Source: Gemmatimonadales bacterium
GTDB lineage: Bacteria; Gemmatimonadota; Gemmatimonadetes; Gemmatimonadales; GWC2-71-9
Direction of reading: 5' to 3'
Assembly: GCA_050733215.1 (NCBI GenBank)
Contig: JBOHSN010000001.1
Location: forward strand, 1,487-65,486
Length of the DNA: 64,000 bases
The position numbers were made by a program, and so were the translations under genes. This document shows, in pieces, positions 2,475 to 50,267 of this stretch. Each line of letters starts with the position of its first letter. Position 1 is the stretch's first letter. Below the pieces are notes generated by a model. That model saw nothing but the letters and a program-made list of their open reading frames with translations. It had not been told where the DNA came from and did no database searches.

Positions 2475-4350
2475 GCTCAGGGCGCGCGCCGCGCCCGGCC
2501 GAACGGCCCGGGTGGCGCTGCTGCTGCTCCAGGCGGGCGCCGTGGCGGCGGTGCTCGCCGCCGTGCCGTTCCCGCTGTTCGATCTCGATCGGCACGCGGT
2601 CCCGAAGGAGCTCGCGCTGCACCTGGCCGGCGCCGGATCCGCGGCGCTCCTGGTATCGCGCGCGCGGCGACTCTCGCTGTCGCTCGCCGACGCGCTGCTC
2701 GCCGTCTTCCTGTTGCTGTGCATCGTCTCCGCCCTGTTCGCCACCAACCACTGGCTCGCCGTCCGTTCGCTGGGCCTCACCGTCTCCGGGGTGCTCGTCT
2801 TCTGGGCCGCGCGGGGGATCCGCTCGGCCGGGCTGGCGCGCCAGCTGCTTTTCACGCTGGCGGCGGGCGTCGTGCTCGCGGCCATGACCGCTCTGCTTCA
2901 GGCTTACGGCGTCGAGTCGCCGCTCTTCGCAGAGCGACGGGCGCCCGGCGGGGCCTTCGGAAACCGGAACTTCATGGCGCACTTCGTGGCGCTCGGCCTG
3001 CCGGTGCTGTTGCTCGCGACGCTCGAGTCCCGGAGGCGGCGGGAGGCGTGGCTCCCGGCCGCGGGGGCGATCGTGCTCGGTGCGGCGCTGGTGCTCTCCC
3101 GCTCGCGCGCCGCGTGGCTCGGCGCGATCGCCGCGCTCGCCATCGTCGCGGTCGAAGGGCTGTGGTTGGGATTTCTCTGGCGCGACGTGACCAGCCGCCG
3201 CCGGATGCTGCAGTTCGCGCTCGGGATCGGCGTGGGCGGGGTGCTCGCGCTCGTGCTGCCCAACACGCTCGAGTGGCGGTCCGACTCGCCCTACCTGGAC
3301 TCGCTCAAGGACGTGGCCAACTACCGGGATGGGAGCGGCAAGGGGCGGCTGGTGCAGTACGCGAACACCCTGCGGATGGCCGCCGCCCATCCCGTGCTCG
3401 GCGTGGGACCGGGCAACTGGGCGGTCGCCTACCCCCGCTACACCACGCCGGGCGACCCCGCGTTCGACGCGGATGACTTCATCCCCACGAACCCGTGGCC
3501 CAGCAGCGACTGGATCGCGTCGGTCGCGGAGCGCGGCACTCTGGCGACGCTCGCGCTGGCCGGCGCGGCGGCCGCGCTCGCGATCGGGGCGTGGAGACGC
3601 TGGCGCATGGCGCCCGAGACCACCGAGGGTACGGAGAGCCTCACGCTCATCCTCCTCCTCGCCACGACCGCGGTGGTCGGGAGCTTCGACGCGGTGCTGC
3701 TCCTTCCCGCGCCGACGTTCTTCGTGTGGGCCGGACTCGGGCTCCTCGCCCGACCGCCGAGGCGTCCCGTCCTCGAGCTCGACCTCAACGGGCAGCGCGC
3801 CCGCCGGCTTGCGGCCGCCGTGGTCACGGCGGGGCTCGTGTTCTCGGCGCGGAGCGCGAGCCAGCTCGGCTCGATGGTGGCGTACGGTGATCCGGGGCGG
3901 GTGGCCGCCATGGAGCGTGCCGCGGCCATCGACCCCGGTAACTACCGGATCAGGATGCTGCTCGGCTACGTGTGGCGGAACCGGGGGCGCTGCGATCTCG
4001 CGCGGCGCCACGCCGAGGGGGCGCGGCGGCTGTTCCCCCACCATCCGGCGCCGAAGCAGCTCCTTGCTGTCTGCAGAAGGGCGATAACCACAAAGAGAGG
4101 AAGAACACGAAGGGCGCTGCGCGAGTGCGGAGATCGGGTCTCGCCCAGCGGCCTTGGTGTCCTTCCTCTCTTTGTGGTTCAACCGCCTGAGGACCGGATC
4201 CAACCGAGGAGCTTGGCCCGCAGCATCGGAAGCGGCAGCGCGCCGTCCTCCAGCACCCGGTCGTGGAACTCCCGGATATCGAACCGCTCTCCCAGCCGGC
4301 GCTCGGCCTCGGTGCGGAGCGCTCGAATCTCGAGGTTGCCCAGCAGGTAG
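2449..4350 (+). CDS. O-antigen ligase (Wzy_C/RfaL-like) family membrane protein with C-terminal TPR-like region
   Basis: About 10 TM helices. It has the RSRAAWLG motif region and a periplasmic loop typical of O-antigen ligase-like proteins. ATG at 2449. The last ~90 codons read through the 4086..4179 hairpin and antisense to the DUF885 gene, so they are probably not native. Confidence 0.75.
   Translation: MAIASRATELRARAAPGRTARVALLLLQAGAVAAVLAAVPFPLFDLDRHAVPKELALHLAGAGSAALLVSRARRLSLSLADALLAVFLLLCIVSALFATNHWLAVRSLGLTVSGVLVFWAARGIRSAGLARQLLFTLAAGVVLAAMTALLQAYGVESPLFAERRAPGGAFGNRNFMAHFVALGLPVLLLATLESRRRREAWLPAAGAIVLGAALVLSRSRAAWLGAIAALAIVAVEGLWLGFLWRDVTSRRRMLQFALGIGVGGVLALVLPNTLEWRSDSPYLDSLKDVANYRDGSGKGRLVQYANTLRMAAAHPVLGVGPGNWAVAYPRYTTPGDPAFDADDFIPTNPWPSSDWIASVAERGTLATLALAGAAAALAIGAWRRWRMAPETTEGTESLTLILLLATTAVVGSFDAVLLLPAPTFFVWAGLGLLARPPRRPVLELDLNGQRARRLAAAVVTAGLVFSARSASQLGSMVAYGDPGRVAAMERAAAIDPGNYRIRMLLGYVWRNRGRCDLARRHAEGARRLFPHHPAPKQLLAVCRRAITTKRGRTRRALRECGDRVSPSGLGVLPLFVVQPPEDRIQPRSLARSIGSGSAPSSSTRSWNSRISNRSPSRRSASVRSARISRLPSR
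4086..4179. repeat. long imperfect hairpin with purine-rich arms (AACCACAAAGAGAGGAAGAACACGAAGG / CCTTGGTGTCCTTCCTCTCTTTGTGGTT)
   Basis: 28-nt arms at 4086..4113 and 4152..4179 pair at 26 of 28 positions. The 38-nt loop has an inner GCGAG/CTCGC pairing. The right arm ends in the DUF885 stop codon (4179..4181). Confidence 0.85.
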
Positions 4351-5924
4351 GACGATCCCTGCCCGGGCACCGAGATGTACCGATCGATCTCGCCCTCCAC
4401 GATCGTCGGCGCGATCACGGTGTGCGCGGCGAGAAACTCCGCGGCCTGCTCCCGGGTCCAGCCCAGCGTATGAATGCCCGCATCGAGCACCAGCCGCGCC
4501 GCGCGCCAGGCCTGGCTCGCCAGGAGTCCCATGCGCCCGATATCCGAGCTGAACACATCCATCTCGCCCGCCACCGTCTCGGAGTACAGCGCCCACCCCT
4601 CCACGTAGCCCGAGTTCGAGAAGTAGCGCGCCAGCCGGTGCGACGCCCCCCGCTCCTGCGCGATGGTGACCTGGAAGTGATGGCCGGGAACGGCCTCGTG
4701 GAATGCGGTGCTCTCCAGCTTGGCGCGGCTCTGCTTTTCGGGCGCCCAGGTGTTGATCCAGAAAATGCCGGGTCGTGACCCGTCCTCCGCGGCCTGGTTG
4801 TACGACGGGACCGCGCCGGTGCGCTGCCGGAACTCCGGATACGGCTCGATGATGACCTTGGCCTTCGGCAACAGCCCGAACCAGCGCGGGACTACGGCCT
4901 CCGCCCGCGCCACGGCGGCGGCGGACGAGTCGATGATTTCCTGCCGGGTGCGGAAGGTGAGCGCGGGCTCGGTCTTGAGGCGCTGGAGGATGGCCGGCAC
5001 GTCGCCGGTCCCGAACGCCCGCCGGCCGAGCTCGCTCATCCCCCGCTCGATGGCGGCGAGCTCGCGCCGGCCGCGCTCGAAGATCGAATCGGCGGGGAGG
5101 TCGAGCGTCGTGTAGCGGAGCACGGAGGCGCGATAGCACGCACTCCCGTCCGGGTTCGGGGACACCGCGATCGATGCGCGGGCCTGGCGCAGGTACTCCT
5201 TCGCGAGAAAGTCGCGATACCGGCGGACGGCCGGATTGATCCGGTCGCGCACGATGGCCACGAACGCGCGCCGGAACTCGGGCGTCGAATCTCGCAGGGC
5301 GGGTGAAGCGAAGGGAGAGGAGTCGGGCGGCGTGGCGAGCAGCCCGTCGAGCTGGCGGATGACGCCTTCGACCACTGGCCTCGGCGCCACGTACCCCCGC
5401 CGAAGTCCGGTCCGGAGATTCGCAACGTCGGTCTCGATATAGCGTGGCAACTGGCGCCAGCGCCGGAGCGCCTGCGCCCGGTAGGCGGCCGTGCCGACCG
5501 GCTGCGAGCGCGCGAGCGACGGGTAGCCCGTCTGCCAGCCGCCCGAGGTGCTCAGCTGCCAGAGCTCGTACCGGCACACCCGCTGGGCCACCCGCCCCTC
5601 GAGCTCGGCGCGCAGAATGCCGTAGGTCGCCCAGTCCGGTCCGCCGGCCAGCGCGGCTCCGTCGATCCGGCGCGCCCGGGCCAGCCATCCGTCCTCGCGC
5701 CGGCGCCAGCGCTCGAGCGCGGCGAGCGAATTGTCGCGGATCCTGTCATGACGGGCGCCCGGGATGCCGTGGTCGGTGAACTCCTCGGGGTTCGCGGCGA
5801 AGAAGGCATCCACGTACTCGGTCGCGAGCGCCGCGACGGCGGACTCCTGGGCCCGAGCCCGTGGCGCCGGAGCGCACGTCACGAGGCCCCCGACCAGACC
5901 AATGGCGATCCACCAGCGCATCAA
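4179..5924 (-). CDS. DUF885 family protein (secreted, putative metallopeptidase-like)
   Basis: 581 aa with a signal peptide (MMRWWIAIGLVGGLVTCAPAPRARAQ) and the HEAVPGHHFQ motif characteristic of DUF885. Confidence 0.9.
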   Translation of the reverse strand: MMRWWIAIGLVGGLVTCAPAPRARAQESAVAALATEYVDAFFAANPEEFTDHGIPGARHDRIRDNSLAALERWRRREDGWLARARRIDGAALAGGPDWATYGILRAELEGRVAQRVCRYELWQLSTSGGWQTGYPSLARSQPVGTAAYRAQALRRWRQLPRYIETDVANLRTGLRRGYVAPRPVVEGVIRQLDGLLATPPDSSPFASPALRDSTPEFRRAFVAIVRDRINPAVRRYRDFLAKEYLRQARASIAVSPNPDGSACYRASVLRYTTLDLPADSIFERGRRELAAIERGMSELGRRAFGTGDVPAILQRLKTEPALTFRTRQEIIDSSAAAVARAEAVVPRWFGLLPKAKVIIEPYPEFRQRTGAVPSYNQAAEDGSRPGIFWINTWAPEKQSRAKLESTAFHEAVPGHHFQVTIAQERGASHRLARYFSNSGYVEGWALYSETVAGEMDVFSSDIGRMGLLASQAWRAARLVLDAGIHTLGWTREQAAEFLAAHTVIAPTIVEGEIDRYISVPGQGSSYLLGNLEIRALRTEAERRLGERFDIREFHDRVLEDGALPLPMLRAKLLGWIRSSGG

Positions 5925-6033
5925 TCCCCCCTCGACGGTTCAGCTCTTAACGCTTCCCTACCCCGTCCCGTCCTACCGTCCGGTCGCGACCACCCGCGTA
6001 CCAACACCGACACCGATGCAAGGAGTAGCACTC

Positions 6034-6915
6034 ATGAGCACGCTCATCCGATGGCGCGCCGCGACAGCAAGCACCCTCCTGCTCGGCCTCGCGGCGTGCA
6101 GCGACGAGGGCGCCGGCCCGTCCGGCGGCGCGCTGACCCAGGCGCAGGCGGAGTTCGCGGCCGAGGCGGTCACCGACGACGCGGACGCGCAGGGGGACAT
6201 CCTGTCTTCGGAGACCGTGGGCGACGCGAGCTTCAGCGTCGCGGCGTTCGCGCCTTTCGGCGCGCAATGCACGCCGCGGCCCACCGCGAGCCCGGCGCCG
6301 ACCGACCAGGACGGCGACATCGTCCCCGACTCGGTGCGATTCACGTTCGATCCGCCCTGCGTGCTCTCGCTGCCACTCCGCACGATCACCCGCTCCGGCA
6401 TCATCGATGTGGTGGATCCCACGCCGACCGATCTCGACTGGGCCCGGCGGGTGCGCTTCGTGGACTTTCTGACCACGCGCGAGCGCCTGGTCAGCGGCGC
6501 CATCGTGTCCGCGCTCCGGAACGGCGTGCGCGAGATCAACGGCAATCCGGACGCGCTGCAGCACGATGTGACCGGTTTCGTCACCGTGTTCACGCACGCC
6601 AACGGCTCCGTCACCACGCACACGCGCACCTGGTCGTCCGACTTCACCGCGGATACGCCGGGGAGCATCGCACGGAATCAGGCGCTCCCCAGCGGCACCT
6701 GGACCATCGGCGGGACGTCGACCTGGGCGCGGGAGAACGCCGTCTGGTCGGCGTCGGTCACGACCGACCAGGCCCTGCATTACGACGCGGGGTGCACGGA
6801 GGCCCCGCGCTTCGACGCCGGGGTGCTCACGCTCGTAGTAACCCGGGGGGGCAACGCGTCCACCGTGACGATCGAGTATGCCGGCTGTGGGGAATACGTA
6901 GTGACGAGAAGCTAG
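6034..6915 (+). CDS. hypothetical lipoprotein
   Basis: In-frame ATG at 6034 preceded by AGGAG (6021..6025). N-terminus MSTLIRWRAATASTLLLGLAAC has a lipobox (LAAC). No recognisable domain. Confidence 0.75.
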   Translation: MSTLIRWRAATASTLLLGLAACSDEGAGPSGGALTQAQAEFAAEAVTDDADAQGDILSSETVGDASFSVAAFAPFGAQCTPRPTASPAPTDQDGDIVPDSVRFTFDPPCVLSLPLRTITRSGIIDVVDPTPTDLDWARRVRFVDFLTTRERLVSGAIVSALRNGVREINGNPDALQHDVTGFVTVFTHANGSVTTHTRTWSSDFTADTPGSIARNQALPSGTWTIGGTSTWARENAVWSASVTTDQALHYDAGCTEAPRFDAGVLTLVVTRGGNASTVTIEYAGCGEYVVTRS

Positions 6916-7040
6916 CTATCCGCTATCGGCTGTCCGCTATCCGCTCGCTCGGCAGCCGCTCGGTTCGCGCAGCGGAGCGACGCGTGCATGCAGTCGCGGA
7001 TAGCGGATAGCGGATAGCGGATAGCCGATAGCCGATAGCG
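6916..7040. repeat. hairpin with heptad-repeat arms (TATCCGC units versus GCGGATA/GCCGATA units)
   Basis: Left arm has 4 heptads (6917..6944) and right arm 6 heptads (6996..7037). It sits exactly between two convergent stop codons (TAG 6913..6915 and CTA 7047..7049). Confidence 0.9.
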
Positions 7041-7046
7041 GAGAAG

Positions 7047-8630
7047 CTACCAACGTCGCGCAACCTCGCGCACCCACGCCACGTCGCCGTCCGCCTTGTG
7101 CCAGATGCGCCGGAGCTCGGCATGGGCGCGGGAGGCGGCTTCGCGGTCGCCGCTCATCGTGGCAGCGCGCGCGAGGCCGAGCAGCGAGAGCGCGCGCTTC
7201 GGGGCCAGCTGGAGCGAGCGCTCGAACTCACGCTGCGCCTCGCGCCCGTCGCCCAGGCCGAGCAGCACCTCGCCCAGGAGCTCGTGGGTCGGCTTCACGA
7301 TATCGGGCGGGCCGTACTCCAGCGGCAACGTGTCTTCCGCCGCCGTGGCCTCGCGCAGCATGGCCAGCGCTTCGTCCTTGTGGCCGTCGACGAGCACGAG
7401 CAGCGCGCGGAGTTCCTTGCTGAGAATGCCGGGGATCTGCGCATTGACCCCATACCGATCGGACGCCTGCGAGCCCTGTGATCGGCGCTCCAACTTGGCG
7501 AGCCAGTGGTCGGCGGCTGCGCGGTCGCTCCGGCCCAGTGCGGCAAACCCCAGGGCGAACGCGTCCATGGCCTGCGGGCCGGGCCCGACACCCGTCACGT
7601 CGAGCTCCCAACCGGCCACCGGGTCCGCCCAGCGCTCGGTGCTCACCAGATAGTGCGCTCGCATCGCCAGGAGGTACGCCTTCCGCGGGATCCGGGGCGG
7701 GGTGCCGAGATTCGGCCGCACGCCCTCGAGGTGCTGCCGCGCCTCGGTGAAGCGCCCCTGCTGCAGCAGCCCGTATCCGAGCCAGTGGGTGTAGTGCCCC
7801 GGCCCCCACTTGGTGCGGTCGCGCTCGATCCCGGTCGAGGCTACCTCGTTCGCCGCGACTGTTTCGTCCCACATGCCAAGGCCGAGAAAAATGTGGCTCG
7901 TCATGTGTTGGGCGTGGTCGGCGCCCGGCGCGATCTTCGAATACGCCCGCGCGGCGCGCAGTCCGAGCGGCGCGTGCTGGGCGTCGTCAAACGCGTGGAT
8001 CAGGTAGTGGGCGGCCCCGGGGTGCTGCGGGTTCGCCAGGAACACCTCCTGCGCGATCGCGCCAGCTCGCATGTAGGTCGGGACGTTCCGCACCGACTGG
8101 CTCAAACCCATCAGGGCGAGCGCGTGGAACGCCTGCGCCTCGTGGTCCTCCGGGTAGGCGGACGCGAGGCGCGCGAGGGCGGCGGCGTAGAGCGTGTCCC
8201 GCCGCGCCTTCTCGCCCTCCCCATAGAGGGTCTCGACCGTTTCGATCCACGCGCGCTCGCGGGCGGTGCGCGCCTTGGCCGCCCGCGCCTCCCGCACGGG
8301 CGCGAGCCGCGCCAGGATCGCGCGCGCCGTGTCGAGGTCCTGCTCGTTCCAGACCGGATGATTGTGGGTCATCGCCTCGCCCCAGTAGGCGAGCGCGAAC
8401 CCGGGATCGATCCGCTGCGCCTCGCGGAACGCGGCGGCCGCGTCCTCGTACTCGAAGCTGTGCAGCAGCAGCACGCCCTTCACGAACGCCGGTTGCGCCG
8501 CCTTGGCACCCGAGTTGGGGAAGGAGATCCGACCGAGCTTGCCCGACTGTGCCTGCAGTGGAGCGACGCCCGCCGCGACCGCGCAGCCGGCGAGCAGAAG
8601 CGCGCGAATGGCCATCCCGCAGAATGGCAC
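7047..8630 (-). CDS. secreted TPR-repeat protein
   Basis: 527-aa ORF with signal peptide MAIRALLLAGCAVAAGVAPLQAQ (alternative ATG at 8615). Helical TPR-like repeats run throughout (AAAAFREAQRIDPGFALAYWGEA..., GDGREAQREFERSLQLAPKRALSLLGLA). Confidence 0.8.
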   Translation of the reverse strand: MPFCGMAIRALLLAGCAVAAGVAPLQAQSGKLGRISFPNSGAKAAQPAFVKGVLLLHSFEYEDAAAAFREAQRIDPGFALAYWGEAMTHNHPVWNEQDLDTARAILARLAPVREARAAKARTARERAWIETVETLYGEGEKARRDTLYAAALARLASAYPEDHEAQAFHALALMGLSQSVRNVPTYMRAGAIAQEVFLANPQHPGAAHYLIHAFDDAQHAPLGLRAARAYSKIAPGADHAQHMTSHIFLGLGMWDETVAANEVASTGIERDRTKWGPGHYTHWLGYGLLQQGRFTEARQHLEGVRPNLGTPPRIPRKAYLLAMRAHYLVSTERWADPVAGWELDVTGVGPGPQAMDAFALGFAALGRSDRAAADHWLAKLERRSQGSQASDRYGVNAQIPGILSKELRALLVLVDGHKDEALAMLREATAAEDTLPLEYGPPDIVKPTHELLGEVLLGLGDGREAQREFERSLQLAPKRALSLLGLARAATMSGDREAASRAHAELRRIWHKADGDVAWVREVARRW

Positions 8631-8677
8631 CCGCCACCGCGCGAATCAAGTCTGGGGACCGGCAGCGACAACAGCGG

Positions 8678-8804
8678 TTCACACGGAGGCGCGGAGGACG
8701 CGGAGAACTGCCTTGGGTTGTGGTCTCACGCTCGGGCATCCGGATTATCGGTCATGAGACCACTTCAAGTGCAGTTCTCCGCGTCCTCCGCGCCTCCGTG
8801 TGAA
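8678..8804. repeat. nested long hairpin with a 34-bp perfect stem built of CGCGGAGG-like 8-mers
   Basis: TTCACACGGAGGCGCGGAGGACGCGGAGAACTGC (8678..8711) is the exact reverse complement of 8771..8804. There is an inner 9-bp stem, GTGGTCTCA (8720..8728) / TGAGACCAC (8755..8763). It lies between the egtA-like stop (8809) and the TPR gene start. Confidence 0.9.
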
Positions 8805-8808
8805 CACC

Positions 8809-10065
8809 TCAGGCCGCGATGGCGGTGCTGCTGACGTCGTCCGCAGGAGACAGCGCGCGCCGGGTGTAGCGGTCGTAGAACGCACGGGCTTCGTCCAGGT
8901 GCGCCGGGTGCACGAAGCTGGTGCCGAGGGCGCGACAGCCGCCGAGCGCGATCTCGAACAGCGCATCCGCCGTCCGCGCGATCGCCGGATCGCGCAGGCC
9001 GTCGCGGCCCGCGTGCTCCAGCAGCGCCGGGTCGGGCGCGGGCACCAGATCGAGCGCCGCGCGCGAGGCGTGCGGATCGTATGCGAGGCCTGCGAGAAAC
9101 GCGATCGGCGCCGCATACCAGGCCGGATCTACGGCATCGGCCGAGCGCACCTCGCAGTGTCCGCGCGGGCGCACCTCGGGGAAGAGCGTCGAGAGATGCG
9201 TCTCCCACTCGTCCAGCAAAGGGTTGGCGCGAACCAGCCACTCGCCGAACGGCAGACAGGAGCCGCCTACGGTCGGGAGCAGGATCGCCGGGGCGGCGAG
9301 GGCGAAGTCGAGATACGCCTGCGCCGGCCGGGCGCCGTCGAACGGCAGGCCCGTGCGCCGCGGATCGAGCCGGCGCCACGCGTGCGCCCGGAAGCTCTGG
9401 TGGCCCGTGGGGCTCCCCGCGTACACCGGCGAGCTCGCGAAGATGGCCGTCACGTACGGCGCGATCGCGTTCAGCAGGCGCCACCGCGCCCTCGGCTCGT
9501 CGTCGAAGTCGAGGCTGACCTGGATGGACGCGGTCTGCCGCATCATCACGCCGCCGAAGGGGCTGATGGTCGCGAAATGCTCCGCCATCCGGTGATACCG
9601 TTTGCTGTCGAACAGCAGCGGAGCGTCGGCCTGGCTGTTGTGGGGGTCGATCCCGCTGGACAGCAGCTCGATCCCCTCGGCGCCGGCTGCGGCCCGAAGC
9701 GGGAGCACCACAGAGCGGAGCCGGTTCACCAGCGCGGTCACCGAGCGGCTCGGTGGCGCGGCGTACTCGATCTGTCCGCCGGGCTCGAAGCCGATCGTCC
9801 CGCCGCCGCGCACGAGGAAGCACGGCACGCCCTTCGGCGTGCAGGTCTCGCCCCAACCCTGCCGGGCGGCGAAGCGCCGGAGGAACGGCAGAATGGCCGG
9901 GCCGCTCTCACCCCCGAGCGGCAGCCGCCGGCCGCTCGCGGCGTCCAGCGGGATCAGCTCGACCTCCGCCCCGATCCGCCGCGGGGTCAGCGATGCCATC
10001 GCCGGGGCCGTGAAGATGCTGCCCTCCAGATGCGCGAGCAGGTCGCAGCGCGAAAGGCGCCTCAT
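8809..10065 (-). CDS. egtA: glutamate-cysteine ligase family protein (EgtA-like, GCS2 family)
   Basis: 418 aa with GAEVELIPL, GFEPGGQIEYAAPP and LSTLFPEVRPRGHCEVRSADA, typical of the GCS2/EgtA family. Its ATG overlaps the egtD stop (ATGA). Confidence 0.8.
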   Translation of the reverse strand: MRRLSRCDLLAHLEGSIFTAPAMASLTPRRIGAEVELIPLDAASGRRLPLGGESGPAILPFLRRFAARQGWGETCTPKGVPCFLVRGGGTIGFEPGGQIEYAAPPSRSVTALVNRLRSVVLPLRAAAGAEGIELLSSGIDPHNSQADAPLLFDSKRYHRMAEHFATISPFGGVMMRQTASIQVSLDFDDEPRARWRLLNAIAPYVTAIFASSPVYAGSPTGHQSFRAHAWRRLDPRRTGLPFDGARPAQAYLDFALAAPAILLPTVGGSCLPFGEWLVRANPLLDEWETHLSTLFPEVRPRGHCEVRSADAVDPAWYAAPIAFLAGLAYDPHASRAALDLVPAPDPALLEHAGRDGLRDPAIARTADALFEIALGGCRALGTSFVHPAHLDEARAFYDRYTRRALSPADDVSSTAIAA

Positions 10066-11024
10066 ACGGGCGCTCCCACGGCCAGCACGAAGCGGCGCGC
10101 GGCATCGGTCTGCCAGGCGTCGAGGTGGAGCCCCGCCGCGGAGAAGACCGCGGCAAGGCTGGGCAGGTCGTGCTTGCAGCTGATCTCGGTGCGGATCGAT
10201 TCTCCTTCGGCGAAACGCACTTCACCGATCCCGGGAACCGCTACCCGATGGGCCGAGCGCGCCACGAGGTGCATCTCGATGCGGTGCGCCTCGCGGTCGT
10301 AGAACGCGCGGTGCTCGAACGCGTCGGGGTCGAAGTCGGCGGCGAGCTCGTAGTTCAGCACGCGCAGCATGTTGCGGTTGAACTCGGCGGTCACGCCCGT
10401 CGCGTCGTTGTACGCCGCCTCGATCACCGCTGGATCCTTCCGCAGGTCCGCGCCGATCAGGAACCGGTCCCCGGAGCGCATCGCGCCGCGCACGCGGGCG
10501 AGGAGCCGGATGGCGGCCGGCGGATAGAAGTTGCCGATGGTGCTGCCGAGGAAGATGAAGAGCGCCGGGGCGGGCAGCGGTCGCGGGACGGTCAGTTCCT
10601 CGGCGATATCCGCCACCGCAGGCGTCACGGTGAGGCCGGGGTACTCGCGCCGGAGCCGGTCCGCCGTTTCCCGGAGGAAGGCCGCGCTCACGTCTATCGG
10701 GACGTAGAGCTCGGCGGTGCCCGCCGCCCGCATCGCATCGAGAACGATGTGCGTCTTCTCGGCGCTGCCGGCGCCGAGCTCTACCAGCGCCCGCGTGCGA
10801 AGCGACGGAATCAGGCGCGGCATCCAGCCCTCGAGGAGCGCCCGCTCGGCGCGCGTGAGGTAGTACTCGGGAAGCCGCGTGATCTCCTCGAAGAGCTCGG
10901 ACCCGCGGTGATCGTAGAAATACTTGGGCGGCAGCTCCTTCTGCGGAGCGGACAGACCGGCCGCGACCTCGGCCAGCATCCGAGGGTTGGCCCGTGGGGC
11001 GGTGACTCTGGCTGCGTTTGTCAT
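10062..11024 (-). CDS. egtD: L-histidine N-alpha-methyltransferase
   Basis: 320 aa. PPKYFYDHRGSELFEEITRLPEYYLTRAERALL and ELGAGSAEKT are hallmark EgtD motifs. Confidence 0.92.
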   Translation of the reverse strand: MTNAARVTAPRANPRMLAEVAAGLSAPQKELPPKYFYDHRGSELFEEITRLPEYYLTRAERALLEGWMPRLIPSLRTRALVELGAGSAEKTHIVLDAMRAAGTAELYVPIDVSAAFLRETADRLRREYPGLTVTPAVADIAEELTVPRPLPAPALFIFLGSTIGNFYPPAAIRLLARVRGAMRSGDRFLIGADLRKDPAVIEAAYNDATGVTAEFNRNMLRVLNYELAADFDPDAFEHRAFYDREAHRIEMHLVARSAHRVAVPGIGEVRFAEGESIRTEISCKHDLPSLAAVFSAAGLHLDAWQTDAARRFVLAVGAPV

Positions 11025-11037
11025 CCTCGGTTCCTCA

Positions 11038-12360
11038 TCACGCGTCGCGCGCGCAGCGAAAGCCGCTGAAGATCTGGCGGCGGATGGGGTAGTCCCAGTT
11101 GCGGAAAGTGTTGCGGATGGCGCCCGGCCGCGTGGCCCACGAGCCGCCGCGAAGGACCTTGTATTCGGATCCGAAGAAGACCTCGGAATATTCGGCGTAG
11201 GGATGGGGGCGGAAGCCGGGATGGCCCGTGAAGTCGCTCGCGGTCCATTCCCAGACGTCGCCGATCATGCCATAGCAGCCCACTGGAGAGCGGTTCCGTT
11301 CGTACGCGCCCACCGGGGCGGTATCGAACGCGAGTTGGTCCACGTTGGCGAGCGCGGGCGTCGGGGGCTCGTCGCCCCAGGGATACGCGCGCGCAGTGCC
11401 GGTGGCGAGATCCCACGACGCGGCGGCCTCCCACTCGGCTTCGGTCGGGAGGCGCTTCCCCGCGAAGCGCGCGTAGGCGTCGGCCTCGTACCACGCGACG
11501 TGACACACGGGCCGGCTCCGATCGAGCGGCCGCACCAGATCCATCGTGCGGGTCCGCCACTCGCCGTCGTCGCGATACCAGTGCTTGGGGGCCGAGACAC
11601 CGGCCGCCTGGAGCCACGTCCAGCCCGCGTCGGACCACCAGTCGCGCCGGCAATAGCCGCCGGCCTCGATGAACTCGAGAAACGCCGCGTTGGTCACGGG
11701 GGTCACGTCGATCCAGAACGGGCGGAGGCGCACGGCATACCGCGGCCGCTCGTTGTCGTACGCGGCGCTCCGGTCGTCGGTGCCGAGCTCGACCGATCCG
11801 CCGGCGAACCGGACCATCGCGCCGGGGGGCACGAGCTCGCGGCCCACCGGAAGCGCGCGACGCTCGACCGGCGTGTAGGGAGCGCCCTGCTTGAGCTGCA
11901 GAGTCTGGAGGATCGTCTCGCCGTGCTGGTATTCGTGCTGCAGCACCATGTGGTACACGTACCCTTCGCGGAGGAGCTCGCTCCCGCCCTCGACGTCGAC
12001 GTCCCGCAGGCGCGCGAGCACCCGGGCGCGGATGTCGCCCAGCGTCTCCCGCACCTCCGCCAGTCCCGGCAAGCGGAGCTGGCCGCGCACCCGGCGCGGA
12101 TGCTCGAACGGGTTGTACAGGCCCGGCATCTCGGTGAACTCGATCGCACCGTCGAGGTTCCGGGTCAGCCATAGCTCCTCGAAGGCGGCGATGTGTCCCA
12201 GGTCCCAGGCCACCGGGCTCATCAGCGGGTCGTGCTGCCGGTGCAGGTCGTCTTCCGAGAGGGGTGCCACGATCTCGAGCGTGCGCTCGCGCGCCTCGGC
12301 CAAACTCGACGCGAGACGGTCCCGGAGACGGTTCGAGGTCGCAAGAAGAGTTGGAGTCAT
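11038..12360 (-). CDS. egtB: ergothioneine biosynthesis sulfoxide synthase (hercynine oxygenase)
   Basis: 440 aa with an N-terminal DinB_2-like domain (MSPVAWDLGHIAAFEELW) and a C-terminal FGE-sulfatase domain (GCYGMIGDVWEWT, VLRGGSWATRP). Confidence 0.92.
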   Translation of the reverse strand: MTPTLLATSNRLRDRLASSLAEARERTLEIVAPLSEDDLHRQHDPLMSPVAWDLGHIAAFEELWLTRNLDGAIEFTEMPGLYNPFEHPRRVRGQLRLPGLAEVRETLGDIRARVLARLRDVDVEGGSELLREGYVYHMVLQHEYQHGETILQTLQLKQGAPYTPVERRALPVGRELVPPGAMVRFAGGSVELGTDDRSAAYDNERPRYAVRLRPFWIDVTPVTNAAFLEFIEAGGYCRRDWWSDAGWTWLQAAGVSAPKHWYRDDGEWRTRTMDLVRPLDRSRPVCHVAWYEADAYARFAGKRLPTEAEWEAAASWDLATGTARAYPWGDEPPTPALANVDQLAFDTAPVGAYERNRSPVGCYGMIGDVWEWTASDFTGHPGFRPHPYAEYSEVFFGSEYKVLRGGSWATRPGAIRNTFRNWDYPIRRQIFSGFRCARDA

Positions 12361-17196: not shown

Positions 17197-17298
17197 GGCT
17201 ATCCGCTATCCGCTATCCGCCCGCTCCGCCACCGCTCGTCGGGTCGCGCGGGGCACCAAGCCGCCGCGGAGAGAGCGGATAGCGGATAGCGGATAGCC
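17197..17298. repeat. hairpin with a perfect 24-bp stem of CGCTATC heptads
   Basis: GGCTATCCGCTATCCGCTATCCGC (17197..17220) is the exact reverse complement of 17275..17298, with a 54-nt loop. It fills the whole gap between the DUF1015 stop (17298..17300) and the serA ATG (17196..17194). Confidence 0.95.
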
Positions 17299-18524: not shown

Positions 18525-18550
18525 GGAACCACAAAGTAAGCGGTGACCGC

Positions 18551-25115: not shown

Positions 25116-25150
25116 AAAAAAGAAAGCGGCCTCTCGGAAGGAGAGGCCGC
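25116..25150 (-). terminator. intrinsic terminator/attenuator in the cimA leader
   Basis: Minus strand reads GCGGCCUCUCC-UUCC-GAGAGGCCGC followed by UUUCUUUUUUC, ending 32 nt upstream of the cimA ATG. Confidence 0.7.
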
Positions 25151-32541: not shown

Positions 32542-32550
32542 TGTTTGAAA

Positions 32551-34425: not shown

Positions 34426-34487
34426 ACATCGATCTCCGGTTCGTTGTGATACGCACTCGCACGCACACTCACACTCGCACTCACTCC
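34357..34487. repeat. hairpin with hexamer-repeat arms (TGYGAG versus CRCACT units), 19-bp perfect core
   Basis: GTGAGTGCGAGTGTGAGTG (34370..34388) is the exact reverse complement of 34466..34484. The 77-nt loop holds the lipoprotein ATG. The right arm holds the ParB-like stop (34481..34483). The left arm encodes LTLALTLTL of the signal peptide. Confidence 0.9.
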
Positions 34488-37358: not shown

Positions 37359-39215
<1,857 letters not shown>

Positions 39216-41682: not shown

Positions 41683-41720
41683 GCGAAGGTCCGGCCCGCG
41701 CCGGGCCTTCGCTTTTTCTT
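41683..41720 (+). terminator. rho-independent terminator
   Basis: GCGAAGGUCCGGC-CCGC-GCCGGGCCUUCGC followed by UUUUUCUU, 31 nt after the stop of the large lipoprotein gene. Confidence 0.8.
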
Positions 41721-45071: not shown

Positions 45072-45138
45072 CGAAGGACACGACGAACAAGAATATGGTT
45101 GTGTTCTTCGCGGCTTCTTGTCTTCTTTTGTGCCTTCG
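45072..45138. repeat. degenerate purine-rich hairpin related to the 4086 and 8678 elements
   Basis: CGAAGGACACGACGAACAAGAA (45072..45093) pairs imperfectly with TTCTTGTCTTCTTTTGTGCCTTCG (45115..45138). It lies in the divergent spacer between the YciI and DinB-like genes. Confidence 0.5.
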
Positions 45139-45156
45139 TGGTCGCGAGGAGACTCG

Positions 45157-45740: not shown

Positions 45741-46295
45741 GTGCAGCAGGTCAAAGGTGCGGTCCTCAAGTCGCGGCTCTCGTTCGTCGAGGAGCACTTC
45801 GCCAAGGACGGCGTGCAGCGCGTCCTCCAGAGTCTGTCGCCCGACGATCAGCGGCCGCTCCGGATGCTCTTCACCTCCAACTGGTACCCGTTCGAGCTCG
45901 GGCGCCGCCTGGATGATGCCATCGTCCGGGTGCTGGGCGGTGGGCGGCCGGCGTTCTTCGAGCGGCTCGGCGCTGCGTCGGCGGACAAGAACCTCGGCTC
46001 GCTCCACAGCGGGTATCTCACACCGGGCGACCCGCACGGCTTCCTCGCCAAGGCGCCGCAGATCTACGCGCTCTACTACGAGACCGGACGCCGCGACTAC
46101 CAGCGCACCGGCGACAAATCGGGCGTGCTCACAACCCACGACGCCGAGACGTTCAGCGCGCCCGACTGCCTGACGGTGGTGGGCTGGTACCGGCGCGCGC
46201 TGGAGCTCTGTGGCGCGCAGGGCGTGCAGGTGACGGAGGAGGAGTGCCGCGCGAAGGGCGGCGCGGTGTGCCGGTATCGAGTGACCTGGAGATGA
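45741..46295 (+). CDS. hypothetical protein (possibly DUF2378-like)
   Basis: GTG 45741 gives VQQVKGAVLKSRLSFVEEHFAKDGVQRVLQSL...CRAKGGAVCRYRVTW. It looks like a coherent globular sequence. The family call is from memory only. Confidence 0.6.
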   Translation: MQQVKGAVLKSRLSFVEEHFAKDGVQRVLQSLSPDDQRPLRMLFTSNWYPFELGRRLDDAIVRVLGGGRPAFFERLGAASADKNLGSLHSGYLTPGDPHGFLAKAPQIYALYYETGRRDYQRTGDKSGVLTTHDAETFSAPDCLTVVGWYRRALELCGAQGVQVTEEECRAKGGAVCRYRVTWR

Positions 46296-47386
46296 GCGGA
46301 GGAGGCGAGGAGCAGAAGGGCAGATGGGGCGGCAGTTCTGCTCGTCTGCTCCTCTGCTCATCTGTTCTTCTTGGGTTCGCCTGCGGCGGGGACACCGGAC
46401 CGAACGGACCGGGACCGCGAACCTACCGCATGGGCTTCTCGGGCATCCCGCCCCGCCCCGACCAGTCCGCCGTTCTCCCGACCGTCGACCAGTGGGCGTC
46501 GCGGGCCGACGCAGCGATCCTGCACATCTCTCCGCCGTGGAGCGCGCTGCTGGCGGGTACCGCCGCTGATGCCGCCGTTCGCGCCCTGCACCTCGCCCTG
46601 GTGGAGCACTACCGGAGCAGGGGCCTCGCCGTCGTCGTCACGCTGGACGCGACCGACGGGCTCAACCGCGCCGCGGAGGCGCCCGAGCTGGTCGCTCTGG
46701 GGCGGAGCATCAGCGAGCCCGCCGTCCAGCAGGCGTATCGGGGGTACGCGGTCGCGCTCGCGACCATTCTCGCTCCCGATTTCCTGGGCCTGGCGGCCGA
46801 AACCGACCTGATCCGCCTGGTGGCGCCACCCGCGCTGTACGCGGCGCTGGTGGCGATGGTGAACGATGCCGCCGCTGACGTGCGTGCCGGGGCGCCCGCG
46901 GTCCCGCTGTACGTCAGCGTGCAGGCGGAGGTGGCGTGGGGGCGGCAGCAGCCGACGCCTGCGTACATCGGTGTCACGCAGGATCTCGCCGACTTCCCGT
47001 TCGTGCAGGCACTCGGGATCTCGTCGTATCCGTATCTGGGCGGCTTCGCGGACCCGAAGGAGGTGCCGCTCGACTACTACGCGCGGCTGGGCGAGGACGG
47101 GTCGCTGCCCCTGCTCGTGGTGGAGGGAGGATGGCCGTCGGTGACGGTCGGCGCCGCCGAGTCGAGCCCCGAGGAGCAGGCGCGCTGGATCGATCGGCAG
47201 GTGGCGCTGCTCGACGCGGCCGGGGTGGACGCCGTCTTTCAGCTCACCTTCGCGGACTTGGACGAACCGGGCGGCTGGCCGGTGGGCATCGCTCCGTTCG
47301 CGAGACTCGGCCTGGTGGACCCGGCCTTCAACCCGAAGCCCGCGCTGGCGCGCTGGGACGCCGCGTTCACCCGTGTCCGGCAATGA
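46292..47386 (+). CDS. lipoprotein, clan GH-A (GH17-like) TIM-barrel glycoside hydrolase-like
   Basis: ATG 46292 gives a signal peptide with lipobox LLGFACGG. LLVVEGGWPS resembles the E-x-GWPS nucleophile motif of GH17-type glucanases. Confidence 0.7.
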   Translation: MSGGGEEQKGRWGGSSARLLLCSSVLLGFACGGDTGPNGPGPRTYRMGFSGIPPRPDQSAVLPTVDQWASRADAAILHISPPWSALLAGTAADAAVRALHLALVEHYRSRGLAVVVTLDATDGLNRAAEAPELVALGRSISEPAVQQAYRGYAVALATILAPDFLGLAAETDLIRLVAPPALYAALVAMVNDAAADVRAGAPAVPLYVSVQAEVAWGRQQPTPAYIGVTQDLADFPFVQALGISSYPYLGGFADPKEVPLDYYARLGEDGSLPLLVVEGGWPSVTVGAAESSPEEQARWIDRQVALLDAAGVDAVFQLTFADLDEPGGWPVGIAPFARLGLVDPAFNPKPALARWDAAFTRVRQ

Positions 47387-48036: not shown

Positions 48037-48038
48037 GA

Positions 48039-48119
48039 GTGAGCGGTGAGCGGTAAGCGGTGAGCAGTGAGCGGGTTCTCGGACGCGGTCCCGCTTACCG
48101 CTTACCGCTCACCGCTCAC
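48039..48119. repeat. hairpin with GTRAGCR heptad arms (5 versus 4 units)
   Basis: Left arm 48039..48073 and right arm 48092..48119. It lies 2 nt from the pdxH ATG (48036) and 3 nt from the M24 stop (48123). Confidence 0.92.
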
Positions 48120-48122
48120 TCC

Positions 48123-49502
48123 TCAGTGAATAAGGTGGAGCTCGGTCTGCCGCTGATACGCCCACCGCGGTACGCCGTCGGGACCCATCACCATGTCCTC
48201 CTCCTGCGGCATTCGCACCCGCTGGCCATTCCACTCGGGGATCGCCGATGTGGCCTGGAGCTCGATCGAGTACCACATCGTGGGGATCACCTTGTGATCG
48301 CCGCGCCCGGGCACTCCCTCCTGATAGTCCCAGAGGCCGATGAGCGGCCCCGAGCCGTGCCCGTGCAACCCGATCGGGTGTGAGTAGATCGTGCCGTCGA
48401 TGCCTGCTTTCGCCAGGCGGGCCCGGGAGGAGGCGAGGATCTGGTTCCCCGTGCGCCCCGGCCGGACCTCCTCCATCAGGATGTCCTGCATCCGGTTGGA
48501 GCGGGCGAGCGCCTTCCTGATCCCCTCGGGCGCGTCCCGCTCGTCCTCGCGCAGCACGTAGGCGAGGTGCTGGATGTCGGTATTGAGCCGAAGCGCGGTG
48601 ATGCCGACGTCGCAGTGCAGCACGTCGCCCCGCTCGATGATCGGGTCGTCGCCGAGCTGCTCGTCGGTGGCGCCCTTCCGCTGCACGTCCACCGACGGCT
48701 GGAACCAGGTGCCGAGCCCCATGTCGTTCACCGCCTGGCGGAAGTACCAGGCGAGATCGCTGGTGCGAGTAACGCCGGGCTTCACGATGCGGTCGGAGAA
48801 CATCGTGTCGATCACCGCCCAGGTGACCTTCGCGAGATCGTTGTAGAAGCGCTGCTCGTCGGGCAGGCGCGCCGCGAGCAGGTCCACGGCGAGACCCTCC
48901 GCGCGCTTGAAGCGCTTGGTCCAGCGGGGCCCGAGCGCCTGGCGCATCCCGCCGTACTCGCCCGCGGTGAGCCCATCGGCAAACGCGAACGTGCGCGAGA
49001 TGTTCACACCGATGACCTTGGGCCGCCGGGTCTCGATGACTTCCTTCAGCACCTCCCATTGCTGGTCACCCCAGAGCTCCGCCTGCCGCCCCGCCACCGC
49101 GGCCTCGACCCGCTTGGTGCTCCGCACCGCGCGGTACACGCCCCCCTGCGAGCTGCCGCCCAGCGCGATACGCTCGATGCCGGCCTCGGGCCCGCGGTCC
49201 CAGAACACGTAGATGGTGCGGCGCCGGGCCGCGAACGTCGTGGGCGACACCAGGGCCTTGAAGAGCGGATCCTCGGCGTACTCCCGCATGGGGATCACCC
49301 ACATGTCGATCCCGTACTGGCGCATGAGGCCGGGCAGGATGCTGTCCATCCGGGTCTGGAGCCAGAGCTGCTCGCGATCGGCCTGCTGGCGGAGCGTGCC
49401 GAACGGGCGAGACTGGGCGGACAGGCGGGCCGGCGGGCTGGCGGGCAGGGCGGCCGCGGCGAGGGCGAGGCCCAGCACAACGCGGCGGAGTTGTATGAGC
49501 AT
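48123..49502 (-). CDS. M24 family metallopeptidase (Xaa-Pro aminopeptidase-like), secreted
   Basis: ATG 49502 gives MLIQLRRVVLGLALAAAALPASPPARLSAQ (signal peptide). Metal-ligand blocks are VLHCDVG, HPIGLHGHG and SIELQA. Confidence 0.88.
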   Translation of the reverse strand: MLIQLRRVVLGLALAAAALPASPPARLSAQSRPFGTLRQQADREQLWLQTRMDSILPGLMRQYGIDMWVIPMREYAEDPLFKALVSPTTFAARRRTIYVFWDRGPEAGIERIALGGSSQGGVYRAVRSTKRVEAAVAGRQAELWGDQQWEVLKEVIETRRPKVIGVNISRTFAFADGLTAGEYGGMRQALGPRWTKRFKRAEGLAVDLLAARLPDEQRFYNDLAKVTWAVIDTMFSDRIVKPGVTRTSDLAWYFRQAVNDMGLGTWFQPSVDVQRKGATDEQLGDDPIIERGDVLHCDVGITALRLNTDIQHLAYVLREDERDAPEGIRKALARSNRMQDILMEEVRPGRTGNQILASSRARLAKAGIDGTIYSHPIGLHGHGSGPLIGLWDYQEGVPGRGDHKVIPTMWYSIELQATSAIPEWNGQRVRMPQEEDMVMGPDGVPRWAYQRQTELHLIH

Positions 49503-49513
49503 GCGGGAAAATA

Positions 49514-49630
49514 GGCGGGAGAGGGAGGGAGAGGGCGGGAGAGGGCGGGAGTGGGCGCGCGAGGGCGGGAGTGGCCGTTCAGCCCGCTCCCGCCTGGTCC
49601 CGCCCGTTCCCACCCACTCCCGCCTGCTCC
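49514..49630. repeat. hairpin with decamer-repeat arms (GGCGGGAGAG-type, 6 versus ~5 units)
   Basis: Left arm 49514..49573 and right arm 49583..49630. The SufU-like stop (49579..49581) is in the loop, and the SufU tail AAEEQAGVGGNGRDQAGAG is encoded by the right arm. The M24 ATG is 12 nt from the left arm. Confidence 0.9.
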
Positions 49631-50136
49631 TCCGCCGCCTTGCCGTACACCAGGCCGGCCTCACTGCGGGCGTTGAGCAGGGCACGCTGCATCTCGCGGA
49701 TCTGTTCGTCGGTGTGTCCCGCCGCTCGAAGCCTCCGGTGCGACTGGATGCTCCGTGCGGCCATCTTGAGCGTGCCGAGCGCGAGCGTGGCACAGCGCTC
49801 CCGGAACCCGACGACCTCGCGGCCGAGCTGATCGACCATGTCGTCGTAGGAAAGCTCCCCAACCTCATCCAGGGTGGGATGGGTGCGGTTGATCCGGTCG
49901 GCGAGGATCGACGCGGCGGCCTGGCTGATGGTGCAGCCCTCGCCCTCGAATCGCACCGCCTCGATCCGGTCCGACCCCGGCTCGGTCTTCACGTACATGG
50001 TCACGAGATCGCCGCAGCCCGGGTTCCCGCCGGGCATCACCGCGTCCGCGCCCTCCAGCGTGCCTTTGTGCCGGGGATGCTGGTAATGATGGACCAGCCG
50101 CTCGATGAGGGTGTGTCGGTCGGGGGTCGCGGGCAT
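49579..50136 (-). CDS. NifU/IscU/SufU-type Fe-S cluster scaffold-like protein
   Basis: 185 aa with the three conserved Cys contexts NPGCGD, GEGCTISQAAAS and RERCATLALGTL. It has an atypical ~45-aa C-terminal extension. Confidence 0.85.
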   Translation of the reverse strand: MPATPDRHTLIERLVHHYQHPRHKGTLEGADAVMPGGNPGCGDLVTMYVKTEPGSDRIEAVRFEGEGCTISQAAASILADRINRTHPTLDEVGELSYDDMVDQLGREVVGFRERCATLALGTLKMAARSIQSHRRLRAAGHTDEQIREMQRALLNARSEAGLVYGKAAEEQAGVGGNGRDQAGAG

Positions 50137-50144
50137 GGGAGAAA

Positions 50145-50267
50145 GCTAATAGCTATCCGCTATCCGCTATCCGCTATCCGCTATCCGCTGGTGCTTGCCC
50201 GGCATCGCGATGCCAGCAACGCCTCGGCGGATAGCGGATAGCGGATAGCCGACGACCGATAGCCGAC
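50145..50267. repeat. hairpin with TATCCGC/GCGGATA heptad arms (5 versus 3 plus degenerate units)
   Basis: Left arm 50154..50188 has 5 perfect TATCCGC units. The loop contains the 14-bp palindrome GGCATCGCGATGCC. The right arm 50227..50267 has 3 GCGGATA units plus a degenerate GCCGACGACCGATAGCCGAC stretch. It lies between the rhodanese stop (50270) and the SufU-like ATG (50136). Confidence 0.92.

Follow-up and report, generated by a model that had tools for sequence, protein, structure and literature searches.

Tandem heptamer arrays paired in inverted orientation are known from Xanthomonas campestris and X. axonopodis, in which Rehm et al. 2015 (PMC4692102) reported 70 and 75 cases of two GGGAATC arrays lying convergent and close together, with stem-loop potential, a conserved gene context and variable length; one Xanthomonas genome holds about 186 repeat sites, 84 on one strand and 102 on the other (PMC4692102). 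Here we describe hairpins whose two arms are themselves short-period tandem arrays (periodic-arm hairpins) in a 64,000-nt stretch of a Gemmatimonadales genome (GenBank assembly GCA_050733215.1, contig JBOHSN010000001.1, positions 1,487 to 65,486; hereafter the window), with a G+C content of 70% across its whole length. These hairpins are real and non-random, and they match the Xanthomonas inverted heptamer pairs in the defining architectural features. The architecture is thus already described, contrary to the first-pass annotation of the window, which was made from the letters alone and knew of no such class.

Like the Xanthomonas arrays, those of the window include convergent heptamer pairs with stem-loop potential, are mostly intergenic and occur in a high-G+C genome. 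Arrays of 5–11-nt units in about three or more copies have a nearby convergent array of the reverse complement, and their gene context is kept while their length varies; loss and replacement among relatives were also observed. Neither GGGAATC nor another G-quadruplex unit was found among the units of the window, which are GTRAGCR, TATCCGC and TGYGAG, only the decamer GGCGGGAGAG having GGG runs; the G-quadruplex unit defines one sequence family, not the architecture. Whereas Xanthomonas has one G-rich, G-quadruplex-forming unit, the window has at least five unrelated families with periods of 6, 7, 8 and 10. The arrays here also start at stop codons, sometimes enter open reading frames (ORFs) and are denser than in Xanthomonas. 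New relative to the Xanthomonas type are the unit sequences, the several families and periods, the tight coupling to stop codons and the phylum; a literature search on Gemmatimonadota repeats gave no paper on such hairpins.

A second group of relatives comprises the long simple-sequence repeats (SSRs) with units of 5–11 nt. Heptamer SSRs are known from cyanobacteria (the short tandemly repeated repetitive sequences, STRR), Burkholderia, actinobacteria and Beggiatoaceae, and heptamers dominate long SSRs (Mrazek 2007, as summarised in PMC4679880). They resemble the arrays of the window in this dominance, in lying in intergenic DNA beside start or stop codons, in units that can place stops in all three frames and in the slippage proposed for their origin. 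They are, however, mostly single direct arrays (one inverted case among 170 sets for the Beggiatoaceae TAACTGA repeat; MacGregor 2015, as in PMC4679880), whereas the intergenic arrays of the window are all inverted pairs.

A third group, the repetitive extragenic palindromic (REP) sequences, bacterial interspersed mosaic elements (BIMEs) and REP doublets forming hairpins (REPINs) of Enterobacteria and Pseudomonas, are extragenic palindromes at gene 3′ ends and in operons, often within 15 nt of a stop codon. The hairpins of the window have the same position, and by analogy they may work like REP/BIME. A REP, however, is a fixed imperfect palindrome of 20–40 nt with hundreds of conserved copies mobilized by a REP-associated tyrosine transposase (RAYT), whereas the present hairpins have tandem-array arms and unique cores. 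We rejected membership of this group: no 20–40-nt palindrome is common to all copies, which share only the 6–10-nt arm unit. MITEs (miniature inverted-repeat transposable elements) were rejected on the unique cores and on the lack of a target-site duplication against locus L002 of a relative (below). CRISPR arrays have direct repeats of 21–48 nt and unique spacers of similar length; here, the 6–10-nt units adjoin each other without spacers, and one array is inverted relative to the other. Integron attC sites were rejected because no RYYYAAC ... GTTRRRY core sites were found in order and the flanking genes are syntenic housekeeping genes, and canonical intrinsic terminators because there is no U tract and a terminator scan flags no periodic hairpin.

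Arrays were called with Tandem Repeats Finder (TRF) and paired when they shared a period of 5–12 nt, had 2.5 copies or more, lay no further than 150 nt apart and had consensus units that, allowing for rotation and up to one mismatch, were reverse complements; an earlier, stricter array finder had recovered four loci, and TRF-based pairing was used instead. On the window, the pairing test returned 13 rows representing 11 distinct loci, with arrays at 6915/6996, 8684/8777, 17198/17274, 28710/28866, 30075/30135, 30884/30935, 32551/32638, 34360/34454, 48039/48091, 49514/49582 and 50152/50227 (periods 6–10, 2.6–18.3 copies, 10–71 nt between the arrays). One hundred dinucleotide-preserving shuffles gave a mean of 0.01 pairs and a maximum of 1, and the test found no same-unit pair in direct orientation in the window. 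The class thus lies far beyond chance by the dinucleotide-shuffled control that the first-pass annotation had named. All but one of the 25 longest inverted repeats in the window are these loci, and no intergenic array in the window lacks an inverted partner. The predicted RNA minimum free energies (MFEs) of the hairpins range from −46 to −112 kcal/mol. Distances from stop codon to stem were taken from the arm coordinates of the inverted repeats; MFE folding of extended regions gave spurious outer pairs from GC-rich flanks. With a few flanking bases included, the hairpins occupy about 1.8 kb, or 2.8% of the window, and make up about 23% of the DNA that is non-coding.

The 11 loci account for most of the 13 hairpins with periodic arms that had been listed from the letters; the other two, at 4086 and 45072, proved non-periodic. 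Among the three loci assigned to 8-mers, 4086 forms a strong but aperiodic hairpin, 8678 is weakly periodic, with some 2.6 copies in each arm, and 45072 is both weak and aperiodic. The list had also overlooked a hairpin with 8-mer arms at 46290–46365. The sequence families and junction contexts were as first described, as were the unequal unit numbers of the arms (18.3 against 5.1 heptads at 28710) and the lack of a U tract, and a comparison of arm coordinates with the gene map bore out the filling of gaps, with stop and start codons in or adjoining the arms. The Rfam search proposed at that stage found no family for the hairpins at gathering and E-value thresholds. They gave sub-threshold microRNA-precursor-like matches on both strands, and these we read as the signal of generic long hairpins. 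The features are collected in Table 1.

Table 1 Hairpins and related features of the window, in order of position (+ and − denote strands).
Feature	Position	Arms	Junction and flanking genes
H1	4086–4179	Purine-rich hairpin; 40-nt arms, 90% complementary	Convergent stops 4085–4087 (+) and 4179–4181 (−)
H2	6915–7042	TATCCGC / GCGGATA heptads, 4.4 versus 6.7 units	Convergent; + stop TAG 6913–6915 overlaps first arm base; − stop at 7047–7049
H3	8677–8805	35-nt arms with 100% complementarity; CGCGGAGG-like units of weak periodicity, ~2.6 copies	3 nt past GCS2 gene stop (8809–8811, −); 61 nt ahead of next start at 8615
H4	17197–17298	TATCCGC / GCGGATA heptads	Fills whole 101-nt gap; DUF1015 stop 17298–17300; SerA-like start ATG 17196–17194
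One-unit GTRAGCR-family version	18527–18550 (−)	GGTGAGCGGTCACCGCTTAC	In 26-nt stop-to-start gap
H5	28710–28901	GTGAGCA / CGCTCAC heptads, 18.3 versus 5.1 units; small unique central hairpin	Convergent; + stop 28708–28710; − stop 28889–28891 within right arm
H6	30075–30168	GGCGGGAGAG decamers	Convergent ORFs TetR 29501–30121 (+) and 30132–30836 (−) each traverse an arm
H7	30884–30963	GGTGAGA / GTGAGCG heptads	M1 peptidase stop 30937–30939 (−) within right arm; ~48 nt spare ahead of next start
H8	32547–32679	GTRAGCR heptads	Fills 130-nt gap, DLH stop 32672–32674 (in arm) to M1 peptidase start 32541
H9	34357–34484	TGYGAG hexamers	Upstream stop 34481–34483 (−) at arm end; ~69 nt spare before next start
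H10	45072–45140	Degenerate, non-periodic, weak (−33 kcal/mol)	YCII / DUF1572 divergent spacer
H14	46290–46365	8-mer NNNTGCTC arms: AGATGAGC GGAGGAGG CGAGGAGC ... / TTCTGCTC GTCTGCTC CTCTGCTC	Stop TGA 46293–46295 (+) within first unit
H11	48037–48125	GTGAGCG / GTAAGCG heptads	Fills 86-nt gap, M24 stop 48123–48125 (−) to PNPOx start 48036
H12	49513–49630	GGCGGGAGNG decamers	NifU-like ORF (stop 49579–49581, −) traverses right arm; M24 start 49502 is 10 nt from left arm
H13	50152–50266	TATCCGC / GCGGATA heptads; GGCTATC / GGTCGTC units at outer end	3 nt past rhodanese stop (50270–50272, −); 15 nt before NifU start (50136)

In most hairpins, the two arrays enclose a unique sequence of 16–65 nt or a small unique central hairpin. 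In H8 and H11, each arm carries the variant units (GTGAGCG, GTAAGCA, GTAAGCG) of the other in mirrored order; the arms are therefore true inverted copies. H5 shows growth of one side, with 14 perfect GTGAGCA units opposite five CGCTCAC units and one A–C mismatch per unit. The GGCTATC / GGTCGTC units at the outer end of H13 are the older ones. Units recur at unlinked loci (GCGGATA at three, GTRAGCR at four to five and the decamer at two), each family in one orientation within the window (4/4 and 3/3), and H6 and H12 share an identical stretch of 29 nt that includes the order of variant units. Single units outside hairpins are not enriched in the intergenic DNA of the window; the one-unit GTRAGCR version at 18527–18550 is a candidate seed or collapsed relic. 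H1, in which TRF called no array, is a doubtful member of the class. H10, the sole locus of the first list in a divergent spacer (132 nt here, 30–49 nt in relatives), is probably a decayed copy or unrelated.

Every hairpin is read into by a gene whose stop codon it adjoins or overlaps. In the filled co-directional gaps, 0 nt (H4 and H11), 5 nt (H8) or 15 nt (H13) remain before the next start, and in the others (H3, H7, H9 and H14) the spare 48–69 nt always lie on the start-codon side. The gene map was built from codon statistics and cross-checked with Pfam scans and the gene calls of other assemblies; it comprises about 54 predicted genes and 53 junctions, and hairpins occupy 4/9 convergent, 9/34 co-directional and 0/10 divergent junctions. 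GTGAGCG units hold TGA and GCGGATA units hold TAG, and a 7-nt unit in tandem puts the stop in all three frames. The decamer GGCGGGAGAG contains no stop codon, so three ORFs run into decamer arms and end in Gly/Arg/Glu-rich tails: those of TetR (30075–30121, +), the 234-aa protein of the 30132–30836 ORF (30132–30168, −) and the NifU-like protein of 49579–50136 (49579–49630, −). The TetR of L002 has a different C terminus, which is the native one.

We next compared orthologous junctions, as the first-pass annotation had proposed, and both presence or absence and unit number varied among relatives. The closest relatives of the M1 peptidase (534 aa; 30937–32541, −) are in Gemmatimonadales metagenome-assembled genomes, at loci L003 (91% identity), L002 (80%) and L006 (50%). 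L002 is syntenic over 25.4–33.1 kb of the window and lacks H5, H6 and H8. Its convergent stop codons overlap at the H5 site (TTTTTCTAGAGTTCC), the H6 site has only 17 nt, and the H8 site reads AAGTAGCCTTACTTT / AAGTAGCCTTACTT, a quasi-palindrome in which a single unit of one arm directly adjoins a single unit of the other. No target-site duplication is visible when the filled H5, H6 and H8 sites are set against these empty ones. L003 has a hairpin at the H8 junction with GGTGAGA / TCTCACC units in place of GTGAGCG and with a different loop; it also carries a single unpaired array after another stop codon (L003:299–324).

The Rhodanese–NifU–M24–PNPOx cluster, which holds H13, H12 and H11, could be followed in seven relatives, related as ((((L129,window),L134),(L130,L136)),L131),(L132,L137). 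At the Rhodanese–NifU junction, the GCTATCC heptads of the window are replaced in L129 by GGCTATC/GGTCGTC/GGTCATC units with a 21-nt super-period, in L134 by a decayed array of the L129 type (GGCTATC/GGTCGTC), in L131 by GCTATGA units with almost no loop and in L137 by seven copies of TTAGCCR; two units occur in L136 and a plain hairpin of 10 bp in L130, with nothing in L132. At the NifU–M24 junction, a periodic hairpin is present only in the window (10-mer) and L131 (8-mer ACGGCCAG); L129 has a non-periodic GC hairpin, and L134, L137, L136, L130 and L132 have nothing periodic. At the M24–PNPOx junction, the window and L131 have two GTRAGCR arms, L129 has one arm of 6.4 units, L136 has two direct units and no partner arm, and L134, L137, L130 and L132 have none. 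H14 also has an orthologue in L129 (13084–13154), with GAAGAGCG / GCTCCTCG arms. In L130 and L132, the four cluster genes lie 11–44 nt apart or overlap, so the cluster is most simply a tight operon in which hairpins grew in some lineages. Across eight relatives, orthologous junctions thus show hairpins that are rapidly born, lost and changed in unit. Counted by TRF pairing, which misses decayed pairs, the window has about 1.7 hairpins per 10 kb, against 0–1.5 in relative loci longer than 8 kb; the value is 0 in L130, L132, L002, the distant Gemmatimonadales locus L006 and two Undibacterium loci.

Beside the same cluster, the NifU-like start is preceded by a 15–17-nt motif, TTAGCTTTCC(N3–5)ATG (window 50137–50151), which is kept in the window and all seven relatives, and no Shine–Dalgarno sequence was found at it. 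Wherever the Rhodanese–NifU junction has a hairpin, the hairpin lies between the stop codon and this motif. Similar motifs, TTTCC or CTTACTTT, precede the starts at 49502, 32541 and 18524, and motifs of the TTAGCTTTCC type may be a non-Shine–Dalgarno initiation signal in the clade.

Assembly GCA_973835775.1, from a near-identical strain, matches 30035–32630 base for base, a stretch that holds two complete hairpins, and it also has the arrays at 28711 and 50145. H5 has 14 GTGAGCA units in the window and 11 in this assembly; together with the different unit numbers of orthologues, this bears out the slippage-type change in unit number that the first-pass annotation had anticipated. Contigs of this assembly (L001, L127 and L128) end within or beside hairpins. 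The last ~55 nt of L128 connect the H13 loop with another TATCCGC arm and flank that the window lacks, and are either a repeat-induced chimera or a real rearrangement.

We also searched metagenome contigs exactly for three GCGGATA units and found at least 120 stretches with them, at 37–73% G+C. Among the matches listed, 56 arrays have an inverted partner, 16 of them TATCCGC-first (as are all three window copies) and 40 GCGGATA-first, and the flanks on contigs of 66–72% G+C hold further paired families with periods of 7, 8 and 10, such as GTGAACA, GTGAGAA, GGGGTCA, GTAGGACG and CGGGAGCGGG, the last of which resembles the window decamer. In high-G+C metagenome and relative loci, the stop codon lies within 10 nt of the first array base at 44/57 inward ORF ends and within −30 to +10 nt at 53/57; these loci comprise 26 co-directional, 8 convergent and 4 divergent junctions. 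In another taxon, GCGGATA-first hairpins at different loci (metagenome contigs L007, L035, L112, L117 and L123) have a common core in the loop, GGCCGGCAWTGCCGGCC, with A- and T-rich runs on its sides. This core looks like a bidirectional terminator, and the whole GCGGATA-first unit with GGCCGGCAWTGCCGGCC may be a dispersed element in that other taxon. Contigs of 37–46% G+C (L063, L093, L089, L109 and L125) also carry paired heptamer arrays, including GCGGATA / GCGTATA, with loops of −2 to 9 nt. The same arrays occur a few times in IMG/VR contigs, and these few occurrences in viral contigs give no link to phage. Three IMG/VR contigs of about 60–68% G+C (L154, L151 and L148) are packed with heptamer arrays, up to 17 or more per 14 kb, mostly unpaired.

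We suggest, with a probability of about 0.5, that the hairpins are palindromic long SSRs that are born and turned over at the DNA level, by slippage and arm-to-arm template switching. The seed would be a short palindrome or small stem-loop located where two genes meet, often including the stop codon (G-TGA-GCG ... CGC-TCA-C, or a TAGC motif). Slipped-strand mispairing would duplicate a 6–10-nt unit in one arm, and intramolecular template switching would copy the change into the other; this would keep the arms complementary, with even their variant units mirrored. Growth would be limited by upstream coding sequence on one side and by the 10–60 nt of the next gene's initiation region on the other, and growth up to these constraints would fill gaps to the nucleotide. 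Arrays would also shrink, collapse to one arm or be replaced, and ectopic conversion would occasionally copy stretches between loci, leaving few recurrent unit families. The transcribed stems must form and, near a stop codon, would probably slow terminating ribosomes or block exonucleases as a side effect, likely similar to that of E. coli REPs near stop codons, where ribosomes stall and upstream expression is lowered. RNA effects of the hairpins are thus probably incidental and not the reason for their existence.

One- and two-unit states exist in L002, L136, L130 and at window position 18527–18550. Slippage has been proposed as the cause of heptamer repeats in general (PMC4679880). For template switching, the analogy is with E. 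coli quasi-palindromes, in which a change in one imperfect inverted-repeat arm is copied to the other. Template-switch correction of this kind is said to have been established in E. coli by Ripley in 1982 and by Dutra and Lovett in 2006. It is known as a mechanism of point-mutation hotspots and is not known to build arrays. The relatives form a graded series, with an empty site at one end, then a palindrome of one unit, a hairpin of two and finally arms of 5–18 units; this series is a natural time course of the birth, growth and death of palindromic repeats. The origin of such repeats has been a question since heptamer repeats were first noted in bacteria, and the junction series makes it directly studyable. 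The hairpins, which in the window have rewritten the C-terminal tails of at least three proteins, break short-read assemblies at gene junctions and will be met in the annotation and binning of Gemmatimonadota genomes.

Several observations weigh against an origin of the hairpins by slippage and template switching alone. The recurrence of units at unlinked loci, the single orientation of each family and the H6/H12 identity go beyond purely local genesis and need either copying between loci (by ectopic conversion or a mobile element) or a shared constraint. For this reason, we keep RNA-level selection and mobile elements under consideration, the former as a doubtful and the latter as an improbable alternative. 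The unique loops of 16–65 nt also stand against the nearly spacer-free empty sites of L002, leaving the loop DNA unexplained. Complementarity is kept where neutral sites are saturated, and this could equally reflect selection for pairing. Last, the intergenic arrays of the window are all paired; in other environmental contigs, many heptamer arrays stand unpaired, and pairing may thus be favoured in this lineage.

First among the alternatives, the hairpins might be selected RNA elements of the REP/BIME kind, whose stems block 3′–5′ exonucleases, are cut by RNase III and/or stall the terminating ribosome and thereby set different expression of the cistrons. The stability of the stems (about 26–47 bp) and their start a few nucleotides past the upstream stop, in the window as at the ends counted elsewhere, would fit such a role, as would the location of several hairpins within an apparently co-transcribed cluster and the retention of complementarity while units change. 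By analogy, a role in RNase III cleavage or RNA stability is possible. In E. coli, REPs that lie closer than 16 nt to a stop codon cause ribosomes to stall and down-regulate translation of the upstream gene (Liang et al. 2015, as cited in PMC12306157); REPs also stabilize upstream mRNA and can stall terminating ribosomes (PMC12306157). However, L130, L132 and L002 run the same genes with gaps of 3–44 nt or overlaps and have no such stems. One-armed versions exist (L129 at M24–PNPOx, L003:299–324 and L136), and the unit type, even the period, differs between close relatives at one junction. Moreover, the nine co-directional hairpins have no sense-strand folding bias, with summed MFEs of −683.8 (sense) and −673.2 (antisense) kcal/mol and 23 versus 25 G–U pairs, and this lack argues against tuning at the RNA level. 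We consider selected RNA elements possible and, on these data, doubtful. Any effect of the stems on the release of ribosomes or the decay of mRNA would make them a fast-mutating source of variable expression.

Next, non-autonomous mobile elements of the REPIN or MITE kind could have been inserted at gene ends by a transposase encoded elsewhere, with slippage altering unit numbers afterwards. This would account for the few unit families that recur at unlinked loci in one orientation each and for the 29 nt common to H6 and H12. The second assembly, in joining the H13 loop to another TATCCGC arm absent from the window, points to more copies, and GCGGATA hairpins in other metagenomic taxa share the loop core GGCCGGCAWTGCCGGCC. 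Against insertion, copies of a family in the window share only the arm unit, their loops and flanks being unrelated, filled and empty sites differ without a target-site duplication, and the units at one junction change gradually among relatives (GGCTATC to GCTATCC to GCTATGA). Furthermore, no transposase, RAYT or nuclease partner was found among the 30 of ~54 predicted window proteins scanned with Pfam, and no transposase or RAYT among the Pfam-labelled gene calls of another assembly (about 17.5–28.7 kb and 50.1–61.2 kb), which together cover most, not all, of the 64 kb. On balance, we think insertion of mobile elements improbable. Similarly a long shot is an active, possibly enzyme-driven process in a Gemmatimonadales sub-clade that writes complementary arrays at stop codons and copies them between loci. 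The result would be a self-extending palindromic element that, unlike REPINs and MITEs, lacks a fixed core; its stems would systematically brake terminating ribosomes or segment operon mRNAs. If true, such array writing would be a genome-wide, fast-evolving layer of expression tuning.

The leading idea of the first-pass annotation, that the hairpins are intrinsic terminators or transcriptional insulators that need no U tract, fared poorly. Very stable GC-rich stems at gene 3′ ends, including 4/9 convergent junctions, and the empty divergent spacers (0/10, one-sided p about 0.04) would suit it. Nevertheless, canonical stem and U-tract terminators occur elsewhere in the window, at 41683–41712 (+) and 25126–25150 (−), and the consensus scan that finds them flags no periodic hairpin. 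At H4, H8, H11, H12 and H13, the next start lies within 0–15 nt of the hairpin, which leaves no room for the promoter that a downstream gene would need after termination. In relatives, the same cluster runs with 11–44-nt gaps or overlaps, and L002 has convergent genes with overlapping stops and no hairpin at the H5 site. Termination or insulation is accordingly quite unlikely as the function of these stems. Of the two canonical candidates, 41683–41712 sits after a gene end and 25126–25150 lies just upstream of a leuA-like gene (start 25083), so that it may be a leader or attenuator and not a gene-end terminator.

Recognition of the 6–10-nt units by a modular protein, with the arrays as its binding sites on DNA or RNA, was also raised in the first-pass annotation; it would explain only the periodicity itself and the recurrence of GCGGATA in contigs of 37–73% G+C (among the matches listed), and we hold it to be very improbable: many unrelated units and four periods coexist, close relatives differ in unit at the same site, pairing would hide the units in RNA, and no candidate protein was found among the 30 scanned in the window. 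Assembly artefacts can be dismissed almost entirely, since a stretch with two full hairpins is identical in the second assembly, at least six further assemblies and metagenomes have equivalent hairpins and the arrays respect reading frames and stop codons, even though short-read contigs of GCA_973835775.1 break at hairpin loci, one of its contig ends may be chimeric and unit numbers differ between the two assemblies.

The genes of the window are ordinary chromosomal ones, including an apparent ergothioneine-type cluster, serA- and serC-like genes, leuA, thiC and peptidases. The named close homologues of the M24 peptidase (48123–49502, −) are all from Gemmatimonadales, and an exact-protein look-up of the SerA-like protein gave no match. 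The three genes at 8809–12303 (−), with GCS2, Methyltransf_33, and FGE-sulfatase plus DinB_2 domains, have an ergothioneine-type look (EgtA, EgtD and EgtB), and H3 follows the last of them. A thiamine pyrophosphate (TPP) riboswitch (RF00059, 60.5 bits, above gathering) at 39005–39104 (−), upstream of thiC (37359–38963, −), is alone in reaching the Rfam gathering score in the window. Last, two 8-mer arrays are coding: one in the N-terminal region of the M24 peptidase (49416–49449, 4.2 copies of GGCGGGCA; L129:10018–10058, 4.9 copies of GTCCGCCA) and one in the M28 peptidase gene (53444–53474, 3.9 copies of GAAGAGCG).

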